Shown here piece by piece: positions 5,782-54,758 of a stretch of DNA of 64,000 nt. Origin of the DNA: a virus; the IMG/VR virus record IMGVR_UViG_3300027724_000010, positions 5,815 to 69,814 of that record. The stretch is one strand, 5' to 3'. The notes under the pieces were generated by a model. It was not told the origin of the DNA and did no database searches. It was given only the letters and a program-made list of their open reading frames with translations. A program made the position numbers and the translations under genes. Every line of letters starts with the position of its first letter. Position 1 is the first letter of the stretch.

Positions 5782-5832
5782 TTTATTAAAGTTTGTGTTG
5801 TTATTTCTAAAGCATATAATGTAGCATCTTCA

Positions 5833-28333: not shown

Positions 28334-29214
28334 ACTGTTTCTAATATTATAAAGTCGTTATTTCTAATTAACTTGTTTTTTAACTTTTTACAAGCTTCTC
28401 TACTATATTCTGTATCATCTACTAATTTTAAATTATCGTAGTATTTATCATAATACTCATCCAATAAATTAGCATCTAATACTTTTTTTATCATTTTTAT
28501 ACCGTAATCCACAAACTGTGGATAGTTGTGTATACCAGCCCCTAACACTCTATATTCTATTCTATTAGATGCTTCTTGATCTTTACCTATTATTCTATGA
28601 TCGCTAAGATTTCCATATAACTTTCGTCTATCTACATCTTTATCATAATACATAGATTGAAAACCTAAAAATACATCATTAAGAATCATAAATTTATGTA
28701 ACTCTTCTTTTGTATATTTTTCATCCCAACCATAATGAATATGGTAACCACAACTTCTCAAATTACCTACCATAGCTGGATCTGGTCTAAACGATATATC
28801 ATTCCGATATACACTATAACTTGGTTCACAACCAAAAGTCATAGCTTGTTCGTTATCTAACTCCATCATATTATATCTAGCACTAGATACTATATCTAAA
28901 CTATACATTGGATCAATTTCTGCTAACCATTTATTAGTATATTCAATACAATCGTCAATTATAGATTTATACATCCAATACTCTTTCATTGGTGGTAATG
29001 TAAACTCTATCATTACATTATCTAATTGTTGAAAACATCCTTCTAAAGCTATAGGTTTAGGATCTTTTTTTGTACCTTCTACTATATTTATTAGAGATTG
29101 ATATTCATTTATACCCTTTATTATACACGGAAATTCAGGATCTCCCCCTATCAAAAAATTTGATTTCATTTTACTAGTTATTTTTATAATAAATATCTTT
29201 ATTACCCCATTCAA
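28330..29214 (-). CDS. amidoligase-like protein, paralogue of 21709..23424
   Basis: SCGYHIHYG motif equivalent to the HIHIG motif of the paralogue. Confidence 0.45.
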   Translation of the reverse strand: MNGVIKIFIIKITSKMKSNFLIGGDPEFPCIIKGINEYQSLINIVEGTKKDPKPIALEGCFQQLDNVMIEFTLPPMKEYWMYKSIIDDCIEYTNKWLAEIDPMYSLDIVSSARYNMMELDNEQAMTFGCEPSYSVYRNDISFRPDPAMVGNLRSCGYHIHYGWDEKYTKEELHKFMILNDVFLGFQSMYYDKDVDRRKLYGNLSDHRIIGKDQEASNRIEYRVLGAGIHNYPQFVDYGIKMIKKVLDANLLDEYYDKYYDNLKLVDDTEYSREACKKLKNKLIRNNDFIILETV

Positions 29215-29692
29215 TTGGAGTTTTGTTATTTTTTATGAGTATTTTATTTATATTTATAAACACATCACTACCCACAAATACTTTTTTACCAGAATATTGA
29301 TCACTCATTGGGTGAACAACTTCTAAAATATTTCCACTAACTATATTTGTTTTAAACTTTTGAGCATCTCTACCCATCAATAACCAAATAATATCTGGTC
29401 TTTTTTTACTTAAACTTGTTATTAGATGCTCAGTAAATGGTTTCCATATTTTACTATGAGAACCAGATAAACCTTGCTCAACAGTTAAAGAAGCGTTTAA
29501 TAATAAAACACCTTGCTCGCACCAATTAAACAATGATTTAGCTTGATAAACAGGATTACCATATATTGGAAACCCTGTTCTTTTTAATTCTTCAAATATT
29601 ATTTTTAAACTAGGATTTATATATCCATTTTCTGTAGCAAATGCTACTCCACACGCTGATGGTACACACTTGTATAATCCAGGATAAGGCAT
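29174..29692 (-). CDS. uracil-DNA glycosylase, exon 2 (family 1 UDG C-terminal two thirds)
   Basis: GVLLLNASLTV…GSHSKIWKPFTEHLI…IIWLLMGRDAQK…HPMS is colinear with family-1 UDG from the GQDPY motif onward. Confidence 0.85.
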   Translation of the reverse strand: MPYPGLYKCVPSACGVAFATENGYINPSLKIIFEELKRTGFPIYGNPVYQAKSLFNWCEQGVLLLNASLTVEQGLSGSHSKIWKPFTEHLITSLSKKRPDIIWLLMGRDAQKFKTNIVSGNILEVVHPMSDQYSGKKVFVGSDVFININKILIKNNKTPIEWGNKDIYYKNN

Positions 29693-30763
29693 TTTGTTAT
29701 CACTAAGACTCTTTATTCTTAGTTTCTGTACTTTTATTTTCGAGTTATAGGTACAGTTCAGACTATATCTTCTACTTTTCAGTAGTGCTGATTTCGTGGA
29801 TATATTATATTCTATAAATTATTATTTATAGTTTCAATATCTAGTCGTTAGGCATTTACTAATATATTATTATTAGATTTAGCAAGGGATTGTCCACTTC
29901 TGGATATTCCCCTTTTAACAGCATTTATACAGAACCCTCATGTAATTTATATATCATTGAAGGAATAATATAAGGTTTAATTATATTAGTAAAATTTATA
30001 ACAGATTTTAGTTTTATATAAATAGAATTATAATAGGAATGATAACTTGCTTCTATATTAAATTTATCTTTTAATAATTTTATTAAAAATAAAACTTCTT
30101 CTTTTGAGAATGAGCAAGTATATATCATATATCCATGTGTAGCTTTACTACCATCATCCATAAACCAAATTGCTAACCCAAAAGAATCAATTTTAGTTAT
30201 AAAATCTTTATTGATAATTTTAATATTATCTTTATAAAAAAAATTTCTATATTTACTAAATATAGGATTAGATTTACTTTTGAAAGTATAATTTTGATTT
30301 AATTTATTTTTAAATCTATTATCTATATTTTCGTAATATCTAAATTTTCCTGCTAATTTAAAATCATTTAAAAAATTATGTTTATATTGACAATACTCTT
30401 TTTGTTTTACACCATGTGCGAAAACCATGCTGGATTGTTTTGCTAATCCTGATATTTTAGATAGGTACCCATCACCTAATAATGAACCAATTATAAATTG
30501 ATCCAAAATATCCGAATCTATACTTAGATATCTATTCGATTTTAAACTATAACGATTTAAATCTGAAATGACCTTTTTTACAGGTATTTTCAGCAAATCA
30601 GCAATTTCTATATTAGTTAATTTATTAGAATATAATTCTAATATATTTTCTGTTAATTTACTTTTTTTTCGTATTTTCATTGTGAATTATTTTTCACAAA
30701 TATACTAAATTAATCCTAATATCCCAACTTTATTATATTAATAAATTGTTAAATATTTTAAAA
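29690..30763 (-). mobile_element. group I intron interrupting the UDG gene after the GQD codons; carries a LAGLIDADG endonuclease ORF
   Basis: UDG ORF breaks at GQD|PYPG; minus-sense R-like CCTAACGACTAGAT (~29843) and S-like GATATAGTCTGAAC (~29748); the last intron base is G (omega-G) immediately before the CCT codon. Confidence 0.65.
29925..30680 (-). CDS. LAGLIDADG homing endonuclease (double-motif)
   Basis: FIIGSLLGDGYLSK and LAIWFMDDGSK motifs ~100 aa apart. Confidence 0.8.
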   Translation of the reverse strand: MKIRKKSKLTENILELYSNKLTNIEIADLLKIPVKKVISDLNRYSLKSNRYLSIDSDILDQFIIGSLLGDGYLSKISGLAKQSSMVFAHGVKQKEYCQYKHNFLNDFKLAGKFRYYENIDNRFKNKLNQNYTFKSKSNPIFSKYRNFFYKDNIKIINKDFITKIDSFGLAIWFMDDGSKATHGYMIYTCSFSKEEVLFLIKLLKDKFNIEASYHSYYNSIYIKLKSVINFTNIIKPYIIPSMIYKLHEGSV

Positions 30764-31009
30764 ATCCTGTCCCAATATAACAACTTTCGTATTATCATAC
30801 TCGCACTCACTAAATGCTCTAAATACTTGATTTTTTTCAGGATATACGATTGTATTTTCATATAATACATCTAAATTATTTAACAATTCGTCTAATCTAG
30901 AATCTAATCCTGTTTCTTTTACAAAATTATTCCACGTTTTAAACTCCGGAACCATTTTTATAATTTTTAGAACCATTTGTAGCTTTAAAAAATCCAACAC
31001 CAAATTCAA
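30758..31009 (-). CDS. uracil-DNA glycosylase, exon 1
   Basis: …VYPEKNQVFRAF…KVVILGQD matches the UDG N-terminal segment up to the water-activating GQDPY loop. Confidence 0.8.
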   Translation of the reverse strand: MNLVLDFLKLQMVLKIIKMVPEFKTWNNFVKETGLDSRLDELLNNLDVLYENTIVYPEKNQVFRAFSECEYDNTKVVILGQDF

Positions 31010-31090: not shown

Positions 31091-31420
31091 TCATATACCT
31101 AATAAATTTTTAATTAAATTAGAAGAATAATTATCATATAATTCTTCCGAATGGTACTGAACGGCAGCTATTGGTAAAGTTTCATGTCGAAATGCTTCAA
31201 TAAGTAAACCACCATCTTCAGTAGAGTCTTCAGAAAACAATAAAGGTTCTAAATCTTTACCTAAATTCAATAAACAAACAGCTTGATGATGATGAGAATT
31301 TACTTTAAATTCTTTAGTATGTTTTTTTACAGTATATGGTGTATCAATACCAGAATAAACGTCGTGAGCTGTAGCCCATCTACTAGATGATTGTGGATGA
31401 TATATTAAATTTTGAGTCAA
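31091..31420 (-). CDS. class-I GATase-like gamma-glutamyl hydrolase, exon 2
   Basis: …SHHHQAV…LPIAAVQYHSEE corresponds to the catalytic His/Glu region of class-I amidotransferases. Confidence 0.65.
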   Translation of the reverse strand: MTQNLIYHPQSSSRWATAHDVYSGIDTPYTVKKHTKEFKVNSHHHQAVCLLNLGKDLEPLLFSEDSTEDGGLLIEAFRHETLPIAAVQYHSEELYDNYSSNLIKNLLGI

Positions 31421-31423
31421 CTT

Positions 31424-32410
31424 AGATCCAAAATATACTGCTAATTGTTGTCAATTTGTTATCTTACAAGTTCTTTATCTTGTAATTCTTATAGTTTCCT
31501 ATAAGTTCAGACTATATCATATTCTTTATAATTTATTTACTTTTTATAACTATTATTAATATTTTTTATTATATTTGCACTTATGAATAAAAATGAACAA
31601 ATAGTAAAATCGCTTCATAAAGAAGGATTAAACGATAGTCAAATTAATGCTATAAGTGGTATATATAGAAGTACTGTTGGTAAAATACGTAAAAAATTAG
31701 ATTTAGAATCTAATGGTTCTAAATATGTACCATTATACAGTAAACTTAAAGAACTCTATTTGGATAATCTAACGGATTCTGAAATAGCTAAAAAATTAGA
31801 TATATCAGATAAAGCTGTATTCTATATTAGAAAACAATTAGATTTAAAAACCAAATTTAAAGTTAAAAAATATTATAACTCTATTGATAAAAGAAAAGGT
31901 TACTGGTTACGTAATATTCGTAATTCAGCAATGCAAAGAAATTTAGATTATAACTTACAAATAGAAGATTTTGATTTACCAGAATTTTGTCCACTACTTG
32001 GGACAAAATTAAATTATAATGGTAAACCAAATGATCCTTATAACGCTAGTATAGATCGTATAGATAATACTAAAGGTTATATTAAAGGTAATGTTATAGT
32101 TATATCTAGAAAAGCTAACCAAATGAAAAATTCTGGTACACTTGACGAATTATTAACTTTTGCTTCTAATATCAATATTCTTGTAAATTATTATAAAGAT
32201 CAAGGCGCTCTTGGAGATATTACCGACGTATTTCCAAACATAGTATTATGTAAAGAAATTTAGTCTCGATCTCTAGTCGTTGAACTTTTAAAGTTATTTC
32301 TAACTAAACTTAGCTGCTGATTGACATATACAATATATATTGTACTTAGTGTTCCAGCAATTCACCTCATTTTTAACCATAAATCACTTTATGGTGGGTC
32401 CCAACATTAG
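31424..32410 (-). mobile_element. group I intron in the class-I GATase gene, carrying an antisense HNH endonuclease ORF in its P8 region
   Basis: host ORF breaks right after GICLGF; minus-sense R AAAGTTCAACGACTAG (~32280) and S GATATAGTCTGAAC (~31503); plausible U/G splice sites giving …GICLGF|TQNLIYHPQ…. Confidence 0.6.
31583..32263 (+). CDS. HNH homing endonuclease (IDRIDN-type) with an N-terminal helix-turn-helix-like region
   Basis: PLLGTKLNYNGKPNDPYNASIDRIDNTKGYIKGNVIVISRKANQMKN; encoded opposite to the surrounding genes and the intron. Confidence 0.75.
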   Translation: MNKNEQIVKSLHKEGLNDSQINAISGIYRSTVGKIRKKLDLESNGSKYVPLYSKLKELYLDNLTDSEIAKKLDISDKAVFYIRKQLDLKTKFKVKKYYNSIDKRKGYWLRNIRNSAMQRNLDYNLQIEDFDLPEFCPLLGTKLNYNGKPNDPYNASIDRIDNTKGYIKGNVIVISRKANQMKNSGTLDELLTFASNINILVNYYKDQGALGDITDVFPNIVLCKEI

Positions 32411-32721
32411 TTAAACCCTAAACATATACCGAATATAGGAGTTTTAGAATCAATATACGCTTTCAATCTATTATTCATAAAGAAATCTTTATAAACATCT
32501 GTATTAGAAGTATAAAATCCTGGTACTTCACCATAATTTGCTGGATTAACATCTAATCCACCTGGTAATAGTATCATATCTACATCTACTTTTTCTTCCC
32601 ACGGTAATATAATACGTGGATTACCAAAATTACTAATAAACTCTAAATATGTTTTATTAGCACCAAAACTGTTATCACCCATAGATGATCCTGGAATACC
32701 TATTACTTTTTTTTTACTCAT
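32407..32721 (-). CDS. class-I GATase-like gamma-glutamyl hydrolase, exon 1
   Basis: ILLPGGLDV…PIFGICLGF nucleophile-elbow region; the ORF stops immediately after it. Confidence 0.65.
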   Translation of the reverse strand: MSKKKVIGIPGSSMGDNSFGANKTYLEFISNFGNPRIILPWEEKVDVDMILLPGGLDVNPANYGEVPGFYTSNTDVYKDFFMNNRLKAYIDSKTPIFGICLGFN

Positions 32722-35395: not shown

Positions 35396-35734
35396 TTATT
35401 TGTTATTTGTTATTTCTACTTTTTTGTTTTTAATAGCAGTTAAGTAATCTGCATTTTTATGTAAATTTATATAACTAGAATGAACAGCTTGTAAGCTATC
35501 CAAATCTGTTGTTGTTCGAATTATATCTAAAGCATCATCTAACTCACTTCTACCTTTAGAAGCCCAATCTCTAAGAATACCACCAGTATCTTCTGATATA
35601 AGAAACTCTGGTACATCTGTAAATAACCCTGTTCTATCTTTAGATGAAGTCGCTAAATGATTATCATTAGTAATCTCAAACACTAAATCCATTTCGTAAC
35701 TAAAACCATCTCTTGTAACTTCTTGTAAACCCAT
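35396..35734 (-). CDS. RecA-fold ATPase (Sak4/AAA_24-like), exon 2
   Basis: continues the RecA-like core (…DLVFEI…SSKDRTG…) after the intron. Confidence 0.5.
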   Translation of the reverse strand: MGLQEVTRDGFSYEMDLVFEITNDNHLATSSKDRTGLFTDVPEFLISEDTGGILRDWASKGRSELDDALDIIRTTTDLDSLQAVHSSYINLHKNADYLTAIKNKKVEITNNK

Positions 35735-36321
35735 TTTTTGTACAGTATTTTTACCGTTAGATCCAGTAACAATAGCAAACTCTTCTTTTCTTCTAACAGT
35801 ACAAAATACATGACAACTTGATGTTAATATCGCATCAATGAAACGATTATGTCTTGGAGTTACACTACCCCAATTCTGAAATGTACCACCTAATCTAGAA
35901 TGTATTTCTAAACAACCCGTTTAGATTCTTATTATTTCTAATAAGCTTAGACTATATCTTATTTATTATTAAGCATGTATTTACTATTATAAATATAATT
36001 AATATTATTAATTGTATTAACAATACAATAAATACCAGAAACTGGTGAAACGGATCTCCAGTTACTTAATATAAATTGCTCCGTTTCGGGAATACTATTT
36101 AGTATTTTATCCCTACTCCCCATCACAGGGATAGTCGTTGAACTTTCACCATTTAAGGCGCTTAGCTGCTGATTGTCCATTTTATAAATATTTTTTGCAA
36201 ATATACAATAAATATTTAAATATATATATTATTTTCAAACTTTCACGCTTATTTTTTCAAATTACGTTGTAGTTAACATATCTTTAGGAGTTTCCAGCAA
36301 TTAGAAGCATAAAGGCAGTTG
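35735..36321 (-). mobile_element. ORF-less group I intron in the RecA-fold ATPase gene, homologous to the GATase intron core
   Basis: minus-sense R AAAGTTCAACGACT (~36145) and S GATATAGTCTAAGC (~35950); shares agtcgttgaacttt…cttagctgctgattg…ccagcaatt blocks with 32270-32370; elevated local GC. Confidence 0.6.
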
Positions 36322-36645
36322 TTATTTACCTTCTCCGCTCCATTCATGTGTGATACTATCTATTATAATTACATCCATTTCAGCTTTTTCTGCTGTATGG
36401 ATAGCTTCAATATATCTTTCTGGAGTATACGGCGCTGTTAAACTTATAGTATTAAACTCACCCATATCCGAATATAAAGAAGCAGAATCTCTCTCTGTGT
36501 CTATTACACAAATCTTAGACCAATCTCCACATAACCCATATGCTGTTTTTAAAGCACTATAGGTTTTACCACTACCTGCTGATGCAGAAAATAGTATTCT
36601 CAATTTTTTAGCTTTCTTGGAAGCTTTCTTTAAAACAAAACTCAT
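36322..36645 (-). CDS. RecA-fold ATPase (Sak4/AAA_24-like), exon 1
   Basis: Walker A SASAGSGKT and Walker B VIIIDSITHEW. Confidence 0.65.
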   Translation of the reverse strand: MSFVLKKASKKAKKLRILFSASAGSGKTYSALKTAYGLCGDWSKICVIDTERDSASLYSDMGEFNTISLTAPYTPERYIEAIHTAEKAEMDVIIIDSITHEWSGEGK

Positions 36646-43197: not shown

Positions 43198-44109
43198 TTA
43201 AATTATTTCTTGATTTTCAATTTTATTAACAATTTTATAAGCTTGTGATATATACCAATCTTTGTTTAGATTAGGATATCTCTCTTTTATCTTTTCAACT
43301 TTAATTCCTTTTTTGTAATCAAATATTTCTTCTTTTGGTATATTTAAAGCTAATGTAACTGGTGTATTAGCTTCTATAGCATCTATACCATCTTGTTTTT
43401 TACCTTTAGTCCAAAATTTAGATATTGTTTGATTACCACCAGCATAGTATCGTAAAAATCTATGATTCATCAATTCTGATTTAGCTACTTTAAGATCGGG
43501 ATTATAAGTAGTTAATAACCAAGAATAACTACCAGATCCTTTTACTCCATAACAAAAATCATAAATATTATTATGATTGTTTATTGTATCTTCTATAGGA
43601 GTACCATTTTTAAAATATTCTTGTAATGCTTGTGGTATAATAGAAGCAGAAGAATCTTTATGATATGCTCCTGATTTTATTAAATCAGCATGAGTTTCAA
43701 ATACCCCTTTGGTTTTGATATCTCCAGATTCTGTGATTGCTAAATAATTGTTTATGTCCCGAATTACATATTTTCGGTAAACATTAGTTTCATATGGTAT
43801 TTTACATATATTAGTTATTTCTTCAAATATAGAATTTAATAATTCTACATCTTTTCGTTCTACTAATATTTCTATACCATCAGTATTTTTAGATAAAATC
43901 GTTGCAGTGGGAATTCTTGTATATATTTTATCTGCTAGCATACAAATGGTTAATATGCCATTTATAGTAGTAAATAAAGTAAATTTTGTATCGTATAATG
44001 CTGAATATTCAGAATTAGATAGGCCAAAAATTAAATTTATAAGAATCTTTGTGCTATAATTCAATAAATATTGAGTTTTTTTATCGTACGTTTTTCTTTT
44101 TTCGTACAA
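43198..44109 (-). CDS. family-B DNA polymerase, C-terminal exon (motifs B and C); the annotated start is an alternative codon and the exon probably begins upstream
   Basis: KILINLIFGLSNS (KxxxNSxYG-like motif B) and LSKNTDGIEILV (DTD-like motif C). Confidence 0.5.
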   Translation of the reverse strand: MYEKRKTYDKKTQYLLNYSTKILINLIFGLSNSEYSALYDTKFTLFTTINGILTICMLADKIYTRIPTATILSKNTDGIEILVERKDVELLNSIFEEITNICKIPYETNVYRKYVIRDINNYLAITESGDIKTKGVFETHADLIKSGAYHKDSSASIIPQALQEYFKNGTPIEDTINNHNNIYDFCYGVKGSGSYSWLLTTYNPDLKVAKSELMNHRFLRYYAGGNQTISKFWTKGKKQDGIDAIEANTPVTLALNIPKEEIFDYKKGIKVEKIKERYPNLNKDWYISQAYKIVNKIENQEII

Positions 44110-45137
44110 TCCCTCTAATAAATTACAATATATTTCTGAAGGTATATGCTTTGGAGATACCTTATTTTTAAATTGTAAATGCGGATAATAACTTACACTT
44201 TTTGTTATCTACTATTACTAGTAGTGTCGGACTATTTCTTAATTTTACGCCAAATAAATCCATATATAGTTGGTTTATATCCATTGCATACTGCATAGAT
44301 ATTTTGCCATTTCCAACTAGGATTTTGTTGTAGAATATCTTCTACTGAGTTCCATATTTTTATAAGATTCATATTTTTATCATATTGATAAAAACAATTC
44401 ATCTTTTGTTTAGCTTTACTAACATTATCACTCATTATGAGTTTAACATTAGGGTTATCTCTCCAGAATATTTTAGATCTATTACCTATTTTAGTAGCTC
44501 TACTGGGATTATTTTTATAACTTTCTAGTTGGGATTTAGACATTAGTTTTTTAGTTTCGTCACTAACTATATTAGATTCATCACTATTATCCGATCTTAA
44601 ATTATATCCACAACGTCTATCTAAAGACGTATAATAATTCATCCAATATAACTCTCTATTTTTCAATAAATCTTCATCTCTATCTAAAACTTCAATAACT
44701 ACTGTTTTAAAATTATCAGCTCCATATTTATACCAAGAATTTATTAAATGTCTATTTTCATCTTTACTTTTAGATTTTAGAGTAGATCTATGATGAACTA
44801 ATCTTTTATATATATTATAAGATCTTCCTATATAAATTTTATTATTTATAATATTTATAATACCATATATCCCACATACGTTATATGTTTCTTTTCTATT
44901 TATAATCATATTTTATATTTTAACTAACGGCAAAGATAGTTAAAATATTTAATATTGCGTAAAATTTTGGACGCTTTTTCATTATAGTTTATGTATTATA
45001 CTATAACTACTTCCTGTTATTAAGATATATCGCTATATCTCAGGTAGTCTCTGCACCTTCTCTCTCTGAGAGCTTGGCTCAAGATTATCCTAACTATAAA
45101 ATTAGGGTTTCCTTGAATTCATCCAATAGTTTTAGTT
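44110..45137 (-). mobile_element. group I intron in the DNA polymerase gene carrying a GIY-YIG endonuclease ORF
   Basis: minus-sense R-like GTGCAGAGACTACC (~45040) and S AAGAAATAGTCCGAC (~44213-44228, just 3' of the endonuclease ORF); the exon-1 ORF ends inside PolB motif A (…FDFN). Confidence 0.55.
44232..44909 (-). CDS. GIY-YIG homing endonuclease
   Basis: CGIYGIINIINNKIYIGRSYNIYKRLVHHRS (GIY…YIG…R…H) then E…N in the catalytic domain, followed by a basic DNA-binding C-terminal half. Confidence 0.8.
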   Translation of the reverse strand: MIINRKETYNVCGIYGIINIINNKIYIGRSYNIYKRLVHHRSTLKSKSKDENRHLINSWYKYGADNFKTVVIEVLDRDEDLLKNRELYWMNYYTSLDRRCGYNLRSDNSDESNIVSDETKKLMSKSQLESYKNNPSRATKIGNRSKIFWRDNPNVKLIMSDNVSKAKQKMNCFYQYDKNMNLIKIWNSVEDILQQNPSWKWQNIYAVCNGYKPTIYGFIWRKIKK

Positions 45138-46112
45138 CTACTCTGTTATGTTAAAGTCGAACGTTATGATTACAAATTTTTCATTACTTTCGTATATACC
45201 CGATTCTACTGCCGAGTGGATCCCTCCAGATCCTATTTGTGTTGTTAATCCTTTATATGTAATAGATTTAGATACTGAATTTTTCAAACTTATAAGTTTT
45301 TTATCTGAATTGATATTACTTTTTAAAGTAGGTATCAAGGTTGTAGACTTATAAAATTCTAAAATCTCATTATATATAGGTAAATTAAATTTAATATACG
45401 GTAATATTATATCTTTAATATCTATTTTATCATAATAAGTTCTTAGTTTTGAAAAATCTCTAGTATCAATACTCATAGCTTGTGATAAATATTTATAAAA
45501 ATATTTCTTACCCATATCTGGTTCTGGAGAATTTAATATATCAATCTTATGAAGATTACCAAACTCTATTCTAAGCTTAATTAGTTCTTTTGTTATATTA
45601 AATACATCTCTAGTTACTTCTACGTCATATTTACAATATTTAATAACTTCATTAACTTGTGCTAGTGTTTTTATTTCGTCATTAAAATGATACGGTAAAT
45701 CTTTTATACTTTTTTTTCTAAGTATAAACTCTAAAGCTTTTAAACTCGTAGTTTTTGCTCCGCGTGGTCCATAATTATTTACTAACATGAGATCTATTGT
45801 TTTATTACACAATTTATCTTCTCTATAAATAGGCCACTCACTATTTATTAACTCATCATTAAACTCTTTTATTTCTTTTGCTGTAGATAATCCTGCTTTA
45901 ACTATTCTAGTTAAAATATTCATATCATAACCTAAAGAGTTATAACCAATAAAATAAGTATTTTCGTTATCTTTTAGATATTGTCGTAAATCTCTTATTT
46001 GATTGATATCATTCCACACTGTAAATACTGTATGTTTATTTTCTTTTGGATCATAAAATACAGCAACAAACAAATTTACATAAACTTCCAAATCGAACAG
46101 GACTAATTTCAT
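45138..46112 (-). CDS. family-B DNA polymerase, N-terminal exon (3'-5' exonuclease domain up to motif A)
   Basis: Exo I LVLFDLEV, Exo II FIGYNSLGYDMNIL, Exo III YCKYDVEVT, and the start of motif A ITFDFN at the C-terminus. Confidence 0.65.
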   Translation of the reverse strand: MKLVLFDLEVYVNLFVAVFYDPKENKHTVFTVWNDINQIRDLRQYLKDNENTYFIGYNSLGYDMNILTRIVKAGLSTAKEIKEFNDELINSEWPIYREDKLCNKTIDLMLVNNYGPRGAKTTSLKALEFILRKKSIKDLPYHFNDEIKTLAQVNEVIKYCKYDVEVTRDVFNITKELIKLRIEFGNLHKIDILNSPEPDMGKKYFYKYLSQAMSIDTRDFSKLRTYYDKIDIKDIILPYIKFNLPIYNEILEFYKSTTLIPTLKSNINSDKKLISLKNSVSKSITYKGLTTQIGSGGIHSAVESGIYESNEKFVIITFDFNITE

Positions 46113-54411: not shown

Positions 54412-54517
54412 TAAAGCAGATGGGACTCGAACCCACGACCACGGCTTTATCAGTGCTGTTAAATTATTATAAGTAGATATTCTACTATACGTGCTCTACC
54501 AGCTGAGCTACTGCTTT
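54412..54517 (-). tRNA. tRNA-like gene with a ~35-nt insertion between the D-arm and anticodon arm; anticodon-loop-like CUGAUAA (Ile GAU-like); non-canonical
   Basis: acceptor AAAGCAG/CTGCTTT, D-arm GCTC-AGCTGGTA-GAGC and T-arm GTGGG-TTCGAGT-CCCAT are all canonical; the middle is 56 nt instead of ~22 and the anticodon stem is weak. Confidence 0.35.
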
Positions 54518-54606: not shown

Positions 54607-54649
54607 AGTTATTATAAGTGTATTATTTGTATCTTTGTCAGATGCGAGG
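54607..54649 (-). promoter_or_regulatory. sigma70-like promoter, copy 1 of a conserved 43-nt element
   Basis: minus-sense CCTCGCATCTGACAAAGATACAAATAATACACTTATAATAACT has a -35-like CTGACA, ~18-nt spacer and -10 TATAAT; 42/43 identical to 55721-55763. Confidence 0.5.
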
Positions 54650-54758
54650 GGAGTACAGGATTCGAACCTGTGTTACGAGCACCCAAAGCTATTTTAAAGT
54701 ATTATAAGTACGTAAACATACTGTATATACGCGTCCTAAACCACTAGACGAACTCCCC
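54646..54758 (-). tRNA. tRNA-like gene with a ~39-nt insertion between the D-arm and anticodon arm; anticodon-loop-like UUUGGGU (Pro UGG-like); non-canonical
   Basis: acceptor GGGGAGT/ACTCCCC, D-arm GTCT-AGTGGTTTA-GGAC and T-arm ACAGG-TTCGAAT-CCTGT are canonical; the insert is related to that of the 54412 element (CGTATA…TACTTATAATAMTTTAA). Confidence 0.35.

Follow-up and report, generated by a model that had tools for sequence, protein, structure and literature searches.

How can a phage encode its DNA polymerase when the coding sequence is cut at a catalytic motif? This question is raised by the minus strand of a 64,000-nucleotide stretch of viral DNA (positions 5,815 to 69,814 of IMG/VR record IMGVR_UViG_3300027724_000010; hereafter the window, 25.8% GC). 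An initial annotation, made from the sequence alone, described three open reading frames (ORFs), all confirmed in the ORF list: 46112..45138 (324 amino acids), 44109..43198 (303 amino acids, with a mechanical TTG start), and a frame of 225 amino acids between them. The outer two were proposed to be halves of a family-B DNA polymerase (PolB) split inside motif A by a group I intron, and the middle one to be a GIY-YIG endonuclease of that intron. Our analysis led to the same reading in substance: with a probability of about 0.9, judged from sequence, the locus is a phage PolB gene split at motif A by a self-splicing group I intron with its own homing endonuclease gene. Splicing and endonuclease activity themselves are inferred by analogy with characterized group I introns.

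Joining the two exons (Table 1) gave a single ORF of 1959 nt (652 codons) that reads ...VIITFDF|VSYYPHLQFKN..., the bar marking the junction. Exon 1 stops two bases into the Phe codon of ...FDF, at 45154 (the last U of GACUU|), and the insertion lies within this codon (TT|T), directly 3' of that for the catalytic Asp of motif A. The frame of exon 2 is open from 44197, 88 nt upstream of the ORF start in the list, while the "N" and the subsequent "ITE" and stop of the upstream ORF are intron sequence. The initial annotation was therefore right that motif A is split, but not in ending the first half with DFN, since the final N is intronic, nor in where the second exon begins. Two candidate junctions preserve the reading frame, and the choice between them was made by fit to the P1 and P10 pairings (see below) and to homologs. 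The junction GACUU|...AAAAAG| agreed with all three and predicts ...UUCGACUU|UGUAAGUUAUUAUCC in the ligated mRNA. The other, ...AACAU| (giving DFN-I-YYPH), was rejected: no guide pairs with that exon end, and homologs read DF[ATV]SYYPH.

When the spliced product was compared with a collection of 5.8 billion proteins, 38 full-length homologs were found (649-663 amino acids, 49-75% identity, 98-100% query coverage), and the motif-A intron is absent in all of these close relatives listed. The 38 uninterrupted sequences all align without a gap over the junction, where they read DF[ATV]SYYPH or DKVS[FY]YPH; more distant homologs read DVxS[LFY]YP[SN], the canonical family-B motif A. Conceptual splicing thus restored motif A, an outcome that had been set beforehand as the test of the proposal. 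Exon 1 covers positions 53-357 and exon 2 positions 365-654 of the PHROGs profile phrog_1252 (663 positions). Since both outer ORFs cover adjoining parts of this one profile, they represent a single polymerase gene cut at one point. An intein was excluded by the stop codons and the RNA structure.

The motif strings pointed out in the initial annotation proved to be invariant columns in a 50-sequence family alignment: D7 and E9 in Exo I (FDLEV), N58 and D63 in Exo II (YNSLGYD), Y159 and D163 in Exo III (YCKYDVEV), K370, N374, and G378 in motif B (KILINLIFG), and residues 424-427 in motif C (NTDG), the first Asp of which is Asn family-wide. In motif A (DFVSYYPH), D319 is invariant, and S322, Y324, and P325 show little or no variation. 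Neither half, nor the spliced protein, matched a polymerase when searched as a single sequence against Pfam and PDB (no match to PF00136 or DNA_pol_B_exo at E ≤ 10), and a family profile was therefore needed. An hmmsearch of PDB with the 50-sequence profile gave PolB of the Thermococcus/Pyrococcus (KOD/9N/Pfu) type at E = 1.2e-15 (8s84_A). Among the further matches were E. coli Pol II, Pol alpha, and Pol epsilon; those listed were all of family B. In these alignments, DvaSyYPn matched DFRSLYPS (motif A), KillNstYG matched KILANSvYG (motif B), and saNTDGi matched ysDTDGf (motif C). AlphaFold2 modeling of the spliced sequence with the family alignment, leaving out one row derived from a GenBank locus, gave a mean predicted local distance difference test score (pLDDT) of 93.7 and a predicted template modeling score of 0.90. 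In a Foldseek search of PDB with this model, the top 50 matches were all family-B polymerases (E ~1e-16, best 1.5e-16; probability 1.00; template modeling score ~0.5), of which archaeal PolB and Pol alpha were the best. On the basis of motifs, profile, and predicted fold, the polymerase belongs to family B, as the initial annotation had assigned it. Of the profile matches that it had expected for the two parts, one to the phage DNA polymerase profile phrog_1252 was obtained and a single-sequence Pfam PolB match was not; this polymerase family is too divergent for the Pfam models, and precomputed PF00136 or PF10108 is carried by only a few distant relatives.

A family-A or phi29-type protein-primed polymerase, in place of a conventional family-B replicase, was considered because of weak single-sequence matches to the exonuclease domain of mitochondrial Pol-gamma (PF18136, E = 0.04) and to phrog_17, to which may be added the missing PF00136 match to the single sequence and a size near that of phi29's enzyme. 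The profile and fold searches, which ruled out family A, returned only RNA/DNA-primed family-B enzymes (archaeal PolB, Pol alpha, Pol epsilon, E. coli Pol II), and phi29-type enzymes were not among the top 50 Foldseek matches in PDB. The polymerase has motifs A, B, and C of the B type, genes for a primase-like protein and a DnaB-like helicase lie nearby in the window, and its relatives in crAss-like phages are classed as PolB (PMC7886860). This alternative is thus extremely unlikely. The size is no anomaly either: relatives, present in hundreds of phage records, are about 600-770 amino acids long (mostly 620-720), and 652 amino acids is typical for this polymerase family, contrary to the earlier description of an "unusually small, phi29-sized" enzyme. 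The hint of a phi29-like polymerase also fell away, because the best structural matches are archaeal PolB and Pol alpha, and primase and helicase are encoded; the typical size, the archaeal-type matches, and these two genes together give no reason to expect a terminal protein. None of the "T4-like accessories" mentioned at the outset were seen among the window ORFs scanned.

If the two halves form one conventional polymerase gene, what separates them? A search of 43900..45400 with the Rfam group I intron model RF00028 gave two matches: 45126..44967 (43.8 bits, E = 1.7e-9), covering P3-P4-P5-P6-P7 and the P3 return strand, and 44374..44208 (26.5 bits, E = 2.6e-4), covering the P7 return strand and P9. 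The core was matched in two pieces because the ~700-nt ORF in P8 breaks the model. The core strings quoted in the initial annotation are present (GCAGAGACTACC at 45054..45043 and AAGAAATAGTCCGAC at 44240..44226). At the 5' splice site, U45154 pairs with the G of the internal guide GAGUAGAA, which is the canonical U.G pair of P1, and ACA (45146..45144), which lies immediately 5' of the guide, forms P10 with UGU (44197..44195) at the start of exon 2. Together with the terminal G of the intron, these are the splice-site features of a group I intron.

Introns at the same site were found in Cellulophaga phage phi14:2, Flavobacterium psychrophilum phage Fpv1, and the IMG/VR loci L038, L041, L044, and L032, in polymerases that are only 27-40% identical to that of the window. 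Six same-site introns were aligned for a covariation analysis after removal of the P8-loop ORFs and of an insert in P5 of phi14:2. An explicit P3-P9 structure, with P7 as a pseudoknot, comprised 55 pairs in 8 helices; 91% of the cells were paired, and compensatory (both-side) changes occurred in 27 of the 55 pairs. None of the observed measures was reached in any of 500 shuffles, and only 34-45% of the cells were paired when partners were slid by 1-3 columns. RNAalifold, unaided, recovered P3, P4, P5, P7.1, P7.2, P8, and P9 (29 of 57 pairs compensatory). P8 of the window is paired at 10/10 positions; the helix is retained in all six homologs despite differing sequences, with both sides changed in 7 of the 10 pairs. 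The core helices P3-P9, including the guanosine-binding helix P7, are thus supported by covariation. P7.1 and P7.2 hairpins are the mark of subgroup IA in the Michel-Westhof classification, to which the T4 introns in td, nrdB, and nrdD belong; both are present here and are retained with compensatory changes. These results, with the RF00028 matches, support the proposed group I intron within motif A and place it in subgroup IA.

The guides provided a further line of evidence. In each of the six introns, P1 and P10 are formed with the exon sequence of the respective host, and the P1 exon/guide pairs in the five other same-site introns fit their own hosts: AGAUGU/GCAUCU, AGACGU/GCGUCU, GGACGU/GCGUCC, and GUCGACUU/GAGUAGAC. 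In Fpv1, for example, P1 is AGAUGU/GCAUCU and P10 is UGCU/AGCA, while in L032 these are GGACGU/GCGUCC and AAGUUC/GAACUU. Guide sequences that track the host exons in six phages are expected only if splicing is under selection.

Table 1. Features of the interrupted PolB gene (positions of the window).
Feature	Position	Strand	Remarks
PolB exon 1	46112..45154	minus	exonuclease domain (Exo I-III) and start of palm, as far as the motif-A catalytic Asp (...ITFD-F)
Group I intron, 956 nt	45153..44198	minus	IA-type, P7.1/P7.2 extensions; terminal G at 44198
PolB exon 2	44197..43198	minus	remainder of motif A (VSYYPH), motifs B and C, thumb / C-terminal region
Endonuclease ORF, 225 amino acids	44909..44232	minus	GIY-YIG, within the P8 loop
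P1/P10 region	45136..45161	minus	exon strand UUCGACUU (45161..45154) pairs with internal guide GAGUAGAA (45143..45136)
Ribozyme core, 5' part	44967..45126	minus	P3, P4, P5, P6, P7 5' strand, P7.1, P7.2
P3	45126..45120 with 44973..44967	minus	
P7	45049..45045 (5' strand, GACUA); 44234..44230 (3' strand, UAGUC)	minus	invariant
P7.1	45041..45022	minus	between P7 and the P3 return strand
P7.2	45007..44981	minus	between P7 and the P3 return strand
P8	44241..44966	minus	5' strand AAUUUUACGC (44966..44957), 3' strand GCGUAAAAUU (44250..44241); endonuclease ORF in the loop
P7 3' strand and P9 hairpin	44208..44234	minus	P9 is CUACUA guaa UAGUAG

On the other hand, several points weigh against a spliced gene. 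The Rfam scan suggested in the initial annotation gave RF00028 matches, as foreseen, but below threshold: nothing reached the gathering score of 50 (best 43.8 bits), the match vanished when the whole 64-kb window was searched (only tRNAs were reported), and the corresponding loci of phi14:2 and Fpv1 gave no match at E ≤ 0.01. P1 of the window holds one internal G x A mismatch, P10 has only 3 bp, and P2 is not evident in the window intron. The covariation set is small, with six sequences and loops trimmed by hand. The gene anatomy, restored frame, family assignments, helix covariation, and patchy intron distribution (described below) are direct observations; splicing and cleavage are predicted from sequence and modeled structure.

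The sub-threshold Rfam matches, the P1 mismatch, and the short P10 might also mark a decayed intron relic that no longer splices, in which case the polymerase would be a pseudogene and replication would depend on another polymerase. However, the core helices of the window are all intact (5/5 to 10/10 paired), every invariant family residue is kept in both exons, the spliced model reaches a pLDDT of 93.7, the endonuclease ORF is full length, and no second polymerase was seen among the large window ORFs scanned. Decay is therefore a very improbable explanation.

The exon 2 frame bears on a different possibility, namely, a genuinely split enzyme whose halves are translated separately from an RNA that keeps the intervening DNA and then assemble. 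The earliest start codons in exon 2 are codon 30 (TTG) and codon 86 (ATG), and translation from either would lose half of motif A and the conserved S322, Y324, P325, and H337. A complete, covariation-supported group I core lies between the polymerase halves, and guides that track exon sequences in six phages are sensible only with splicing under selection. The split enzyme nevertheless has precedents: GenBank/RefSeq records of the Fpv1 type list two separate "DNA polymerase" coding sequences (CDSs) with a "homing endonuclease" between them, halves that are translated separately and assemble are reported for the split gene 43A/43B in Aeromonas phage 25 and for nrdA, split by mobE, in phage Aeh1 (PMC2988022), and functional split PolB enzymes are documented. 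We consider a two-polypeptide polymerase in the window to be highly unlikely, and a gene restored by splicing remains the preferred explanation.

The middle ORF was the only one of the three recognized by Pfam: its match to PF01541 (GIY-YIG; 38.4 bits against a cut-off of 22.6, E = 1.6e-9) exceeded the gathering score, in line with the earlier call, and PHROG homing-endonuclease families matched at 2e-23. The first 104 residues align with the catalytic domain of I-TevI (1LN0/1MK0, E = 2.4e-6), including the GIY and YIG motifs. Its Arg, Glu, and Asn align with catalytic positions of I-TevI, which we take to be R27, E75, and N90. The catalytic roles of these I-TevI residues have been described (PMC2988022). 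The ORF is intact and full length. Its last seven codons and UAG stop (...W R K I K K and stop; 44232..44255) fall within the P8 3' strand, J8/7, and the beginning of P7 on its 3' side. The same end position was found in the four homologs with a complete endonuclease-bearing copy (Fpv1, L038, L041, and L032), and this shared ending means that ~25 nt serve both to code for the protein C-terminus and as part of the ribozyme core.

From this arrangement, the following course may be proposed. One pre-mRNA would be transcribed over exon 1, the intron, and exon 2, and the intron would fold as an IA-type ribozyme (P1-P10 with P7.1/P7.2). Guanosine-initiated transesterification would cut after U45154, held in P1 by the guide GAGUAGAA, and the exons, aligned by P10, would be ligated after the terminal G (44198), to yield an mRNA for a 652-amino-acid polymerase (~76 kDa, estimated from its length) whose motif A again reads DFVSYYPH. 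The GIY-YIG enzyme, with its ORF in the P8 loop, is expected to cut the polymerase genes of co-infecting relatives that lack the intron, close to this conserved site; I-TevI-like enzymes cut about 23-25 nt upstream of the insertion site. When the break is repaired with the intron-bearing copy as template, the intron would be spread (homing).

Is the intron distributed as homing would predict? The cores of the same-site introns are 59-71% identical to that of the window and their endonucleases 45-52%, against 27-40% for the host polymerases; as judged from these sequences, the distribution looks like that of a mobile element. Intron-less alleles of close relatives keep a similar target: TTCGACTT|TGTAAGTTATTATCC in the window is represented by ATGGATTT|TGCTAGTTACTATCC in locus L053 and by TTTGATAA|AGTTTCTTTTTATCC at the same site in L054. 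A scan of IMG/VR with a P7-P7.1-P7.2 pattern gave 36 loci, nine of which carry this polymerase: phi14:2 (L030), the uninterrupted L020, and seven in which an endonuclease match adjoins the gap, including four near-identical Fpv-like copies. A P6-P7 pattern gave 13 loci, which are related introns in other genes; neither this polymerase nor this endonuclease was present in any of them.

In phi14:2 (Crassvirales, NC_021806), the insertion point is identical, GUCGACUU|...|C GCU AGC UAC UAU, which gives DF|ASYYPH, and the P1 guide GAGUAGAC is the same as that of the window. The core is ~71% identical, with compensatory changes in P3, P4, P7.1, P7.2, P8, and P9, although the polymerase is only ~32-33% identical. 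Unlike the window, phi14:2 has no endonuclease in its intron; P8 is a short closed hairpin, and the P5 loop holds an insert of ~180 nt. The RefSeq annotation of this phage joins two pieces into one CDS for "PolB" (gene g018x). Flavobacterium psychrophilum phages (Fpv1 and FPSV types, Fipvunavirus) are also interrupted at the same point, AGAUGU|...|U GCU GGA UAU UAU, which gives DV|AGYYPS. As in the window, the P8 loop of Fpv1 holds a GIY-YIG ORF, which terminates in the same J8/7-P7 sequence, and the two endonucleases are 45% identical in protein and 67% in DNA. The Fpv1 intron differs in having a P2 hairpin and no clear P7.1; its core is 59% and its polymerase 27-32% identical. Public records of Fpv1 (L003, NC_031914 77836..80903) and ~20 other Fpv/FPSV phages contain two "DNA polymerase" CDSs around a "homing endonuclease" or "hypothetical protein", with neither the intron nor a joined CDS annotated.

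Other members of the family are interrupted elsewhere. Polymerases 47-59% identical to that of the window (P0040-P0050) are cut at motif B (...KIxINLLYG|), at motif C (...NT|), or in the RDVNNY region, and the motif-B and motif-C loci (L055 4001..7244 and L056 4001..7010) each contain a GIY-YIG ORF (345 and 246 amino acids, respectively) and a group I core. A second gap of ~1.1 kb accompanies the motif-A intron at residues 359-377 (motif B) in a group of Fpv-like IMG/VR loci (L032, L035, L019, and L027), and near residue 122 in L041, there with a weak second GIY-YIG match. With interruptions at motifs A, B, and C in different lineages, each catalytic motif of this PolB family is an intron target somewhere. 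Inteins of archaeal PolB are likewise known at motifs A, B, and C. The PolB intron of the window resembles the T4 td intron (class IA2, with I-TevI) in having a ribozyme with P7.1/P7.2 and a modular endonuclease with an I-TevI-like catalytic domain. The td host gene, on the other hand, is that for thymidylate synthase, and there is no sequence similarity beyond the GIY-YIG domain. The I-TevI ORF sits in the P6 loop of its intron, whereas that of the window is in P8. The elements of Bacillus phages SPO1, SP82, and Bastille (I-HmuI, I-BasI) reside in family-A polymerases and encode HNH nicking endonucleases. The window shares with td an insertion in a conserved, essential gene of nucleotide metabolism or replication, and with these Bacillus phages and gp43 of Aeromonas phage 25 a mobile element in a DNA polymerase gene (PMC2988022). 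Aeromonas phage 25 differs in that its insertion is a free-standing seg gene without an intron, and its polymerase works as two polypeptides. Homing endonucleases are described as targeting functionally critical, conserved sequences such as DNA polymerase genes (PMC2988022), and the site in the window fits this description.

Endonuclease-bearing group I introns in phage DNA polymerase genes have long been known (for example, the I-BasI reference in PMC2988022). Among crAss-like phages, the Delta and Zeta groups carry group I introns in core genes that include PolB, those in Delta-group PolB being stated explicitly (Yutin et al. 2021, PMC7886860), and an account of Jug phages notes that their DNA polymerase genes are frequently split (PMC12880540). 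According to these papers, the same polymerase family as in the window has been repeatedly invaded there by endonuclease-bearing group I introns, several per genome, and the introns were found mainly via endonuclease domains or covariance-model matches; the main text of both, as consulted here, gives no motif-A site, splice junction, or ribozyme structure. The phage of the window is not assigned to the crAss-like or Jug phages.

Three further group I introns, missed by Rfam, were observed on the same (minus) strand of the window. A uracil-DNA glycosylase (UDG)-like gene (29174..31009) is split at the catalytic GQD|PYPG by an intron at about 30763..29690: the N-terminal ORF (31009..30758) ends ...KVVILGQDF, and the C-terminal ORF (29692..29174) begins MPYPG...QGVLLLNASLTV. 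This intron holds a LAGLIDADG ORF (30680..29925; phrog_11023, 8e-18) and a group I core that was recognized by eye (AACGACUAG ... AGAUAUAGUCUGA, P9 hairpins), ending ...AACAAAAUG|CC. A class-I glutamine-amidotransferase-like gene (31091..32721) is split at its nucleophile motif, GICLG, by an intron at about 32413..31452; the splice GGGUU|...AAAUUG|A would give GICLGLQQLAVYFG, and the group I elements are GAAUUGCUGGAA, CAAUCAGCAGCUAAG, CAACGACUAG, and GAUAUAGUCUGA. Its HNH ORF (31583..32263; phrog_3322, 1e-27) is on the plus strand, opposite to the host gene, which is unusual for a phage intron. RF00028 gave nothing in the UDG and amidotransferase region of the window at E ≤ 1. The gene for an AAA/RecA-like ATPase (35396..36645) is also apparently split: the ORF 36645..36322 ends ...DSITHEWSGEGK and is followed by the ORF 35734..35396, with a group I core between them at about 36300..35890 (UUGCUGGAAAC, CAAUCAGCAGCUAAG, CAACGACUA, AAGAUAUAGUCUAAG) and no full-length endonuclease ORF in the gap. 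The ATPase ATP_43b is among the intron-bearing crAss-like genes named by Yutin et al. (PMC7886860). A J3/4-P4-like string, GAATTGTGGGAA, at 63376..63387 (minus), near the window end, could belong to a further intron running off the window.

Two tRNA-like genes (minus strand, 54412..54517 and 54647..54758; 45.9 and 40.4 bits, both above the Rfam tRNA gathering score) carry 46 or 52 nt in place of the 13 anticodon-arm positions of the model, i.e., 33-39 extra nt. ARAGORN reported them only when introns were allowed, calling one Ile(tat), with an insert of 14 nt and a long variable arm, and the other Gln(ttg), in which the insert is 39 nt. ACTTATAATA is present in both inserts and in the spacer between the genes. 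These inserts are too short to be group I introns.

What does the interrupted polymerase gene mean for this family? No concept is changed, because homing introns in phage polymerase genes, including crAss-like PolB, have already been described, and in phi14:2 this same intron is already represented by a joined CDS. What is added is a precisely mapped homing intron at catalytic motif A of a compact, phage-widespread PolB family, with its exact junction and a structure supported by covariation. For annotation, the window contains one polymerase of 652 amino acids, not two fragments, and the same correction applies to GenBank records of the Fpv1 type; gene callers and Rfam at default thresholds both miss the PolB intron. 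The same intron has moved between polymerases that share only ~30% identity, and its hosts include a crAss-like Cellulophaga phage, Flavobacterium phages, and the uncultured AT-rich phage of the window. It occurs with an endonuclease (window, Fpv1) and without one (phi14:2), so that both forms share one site across very different phages. In the window, four group I introns lie within ~16 kb; they interrupt the genes for PolB, UDG, the glutamine amidotransferase, and the AAA-ATPase, each at or near a catalytic motif, with three endonuclease families among them and one ORF antisense. We tentatively suggest that the PolB intron may be part of an unusually intron-dense replication module, a suggestion to which we give somewhat less than even odds. 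If it is true, this phage lineage would offer a natural system for the capture of endonucleases by introns ("collaborative homing") and for competition among introns over polymerase active-site sequences.

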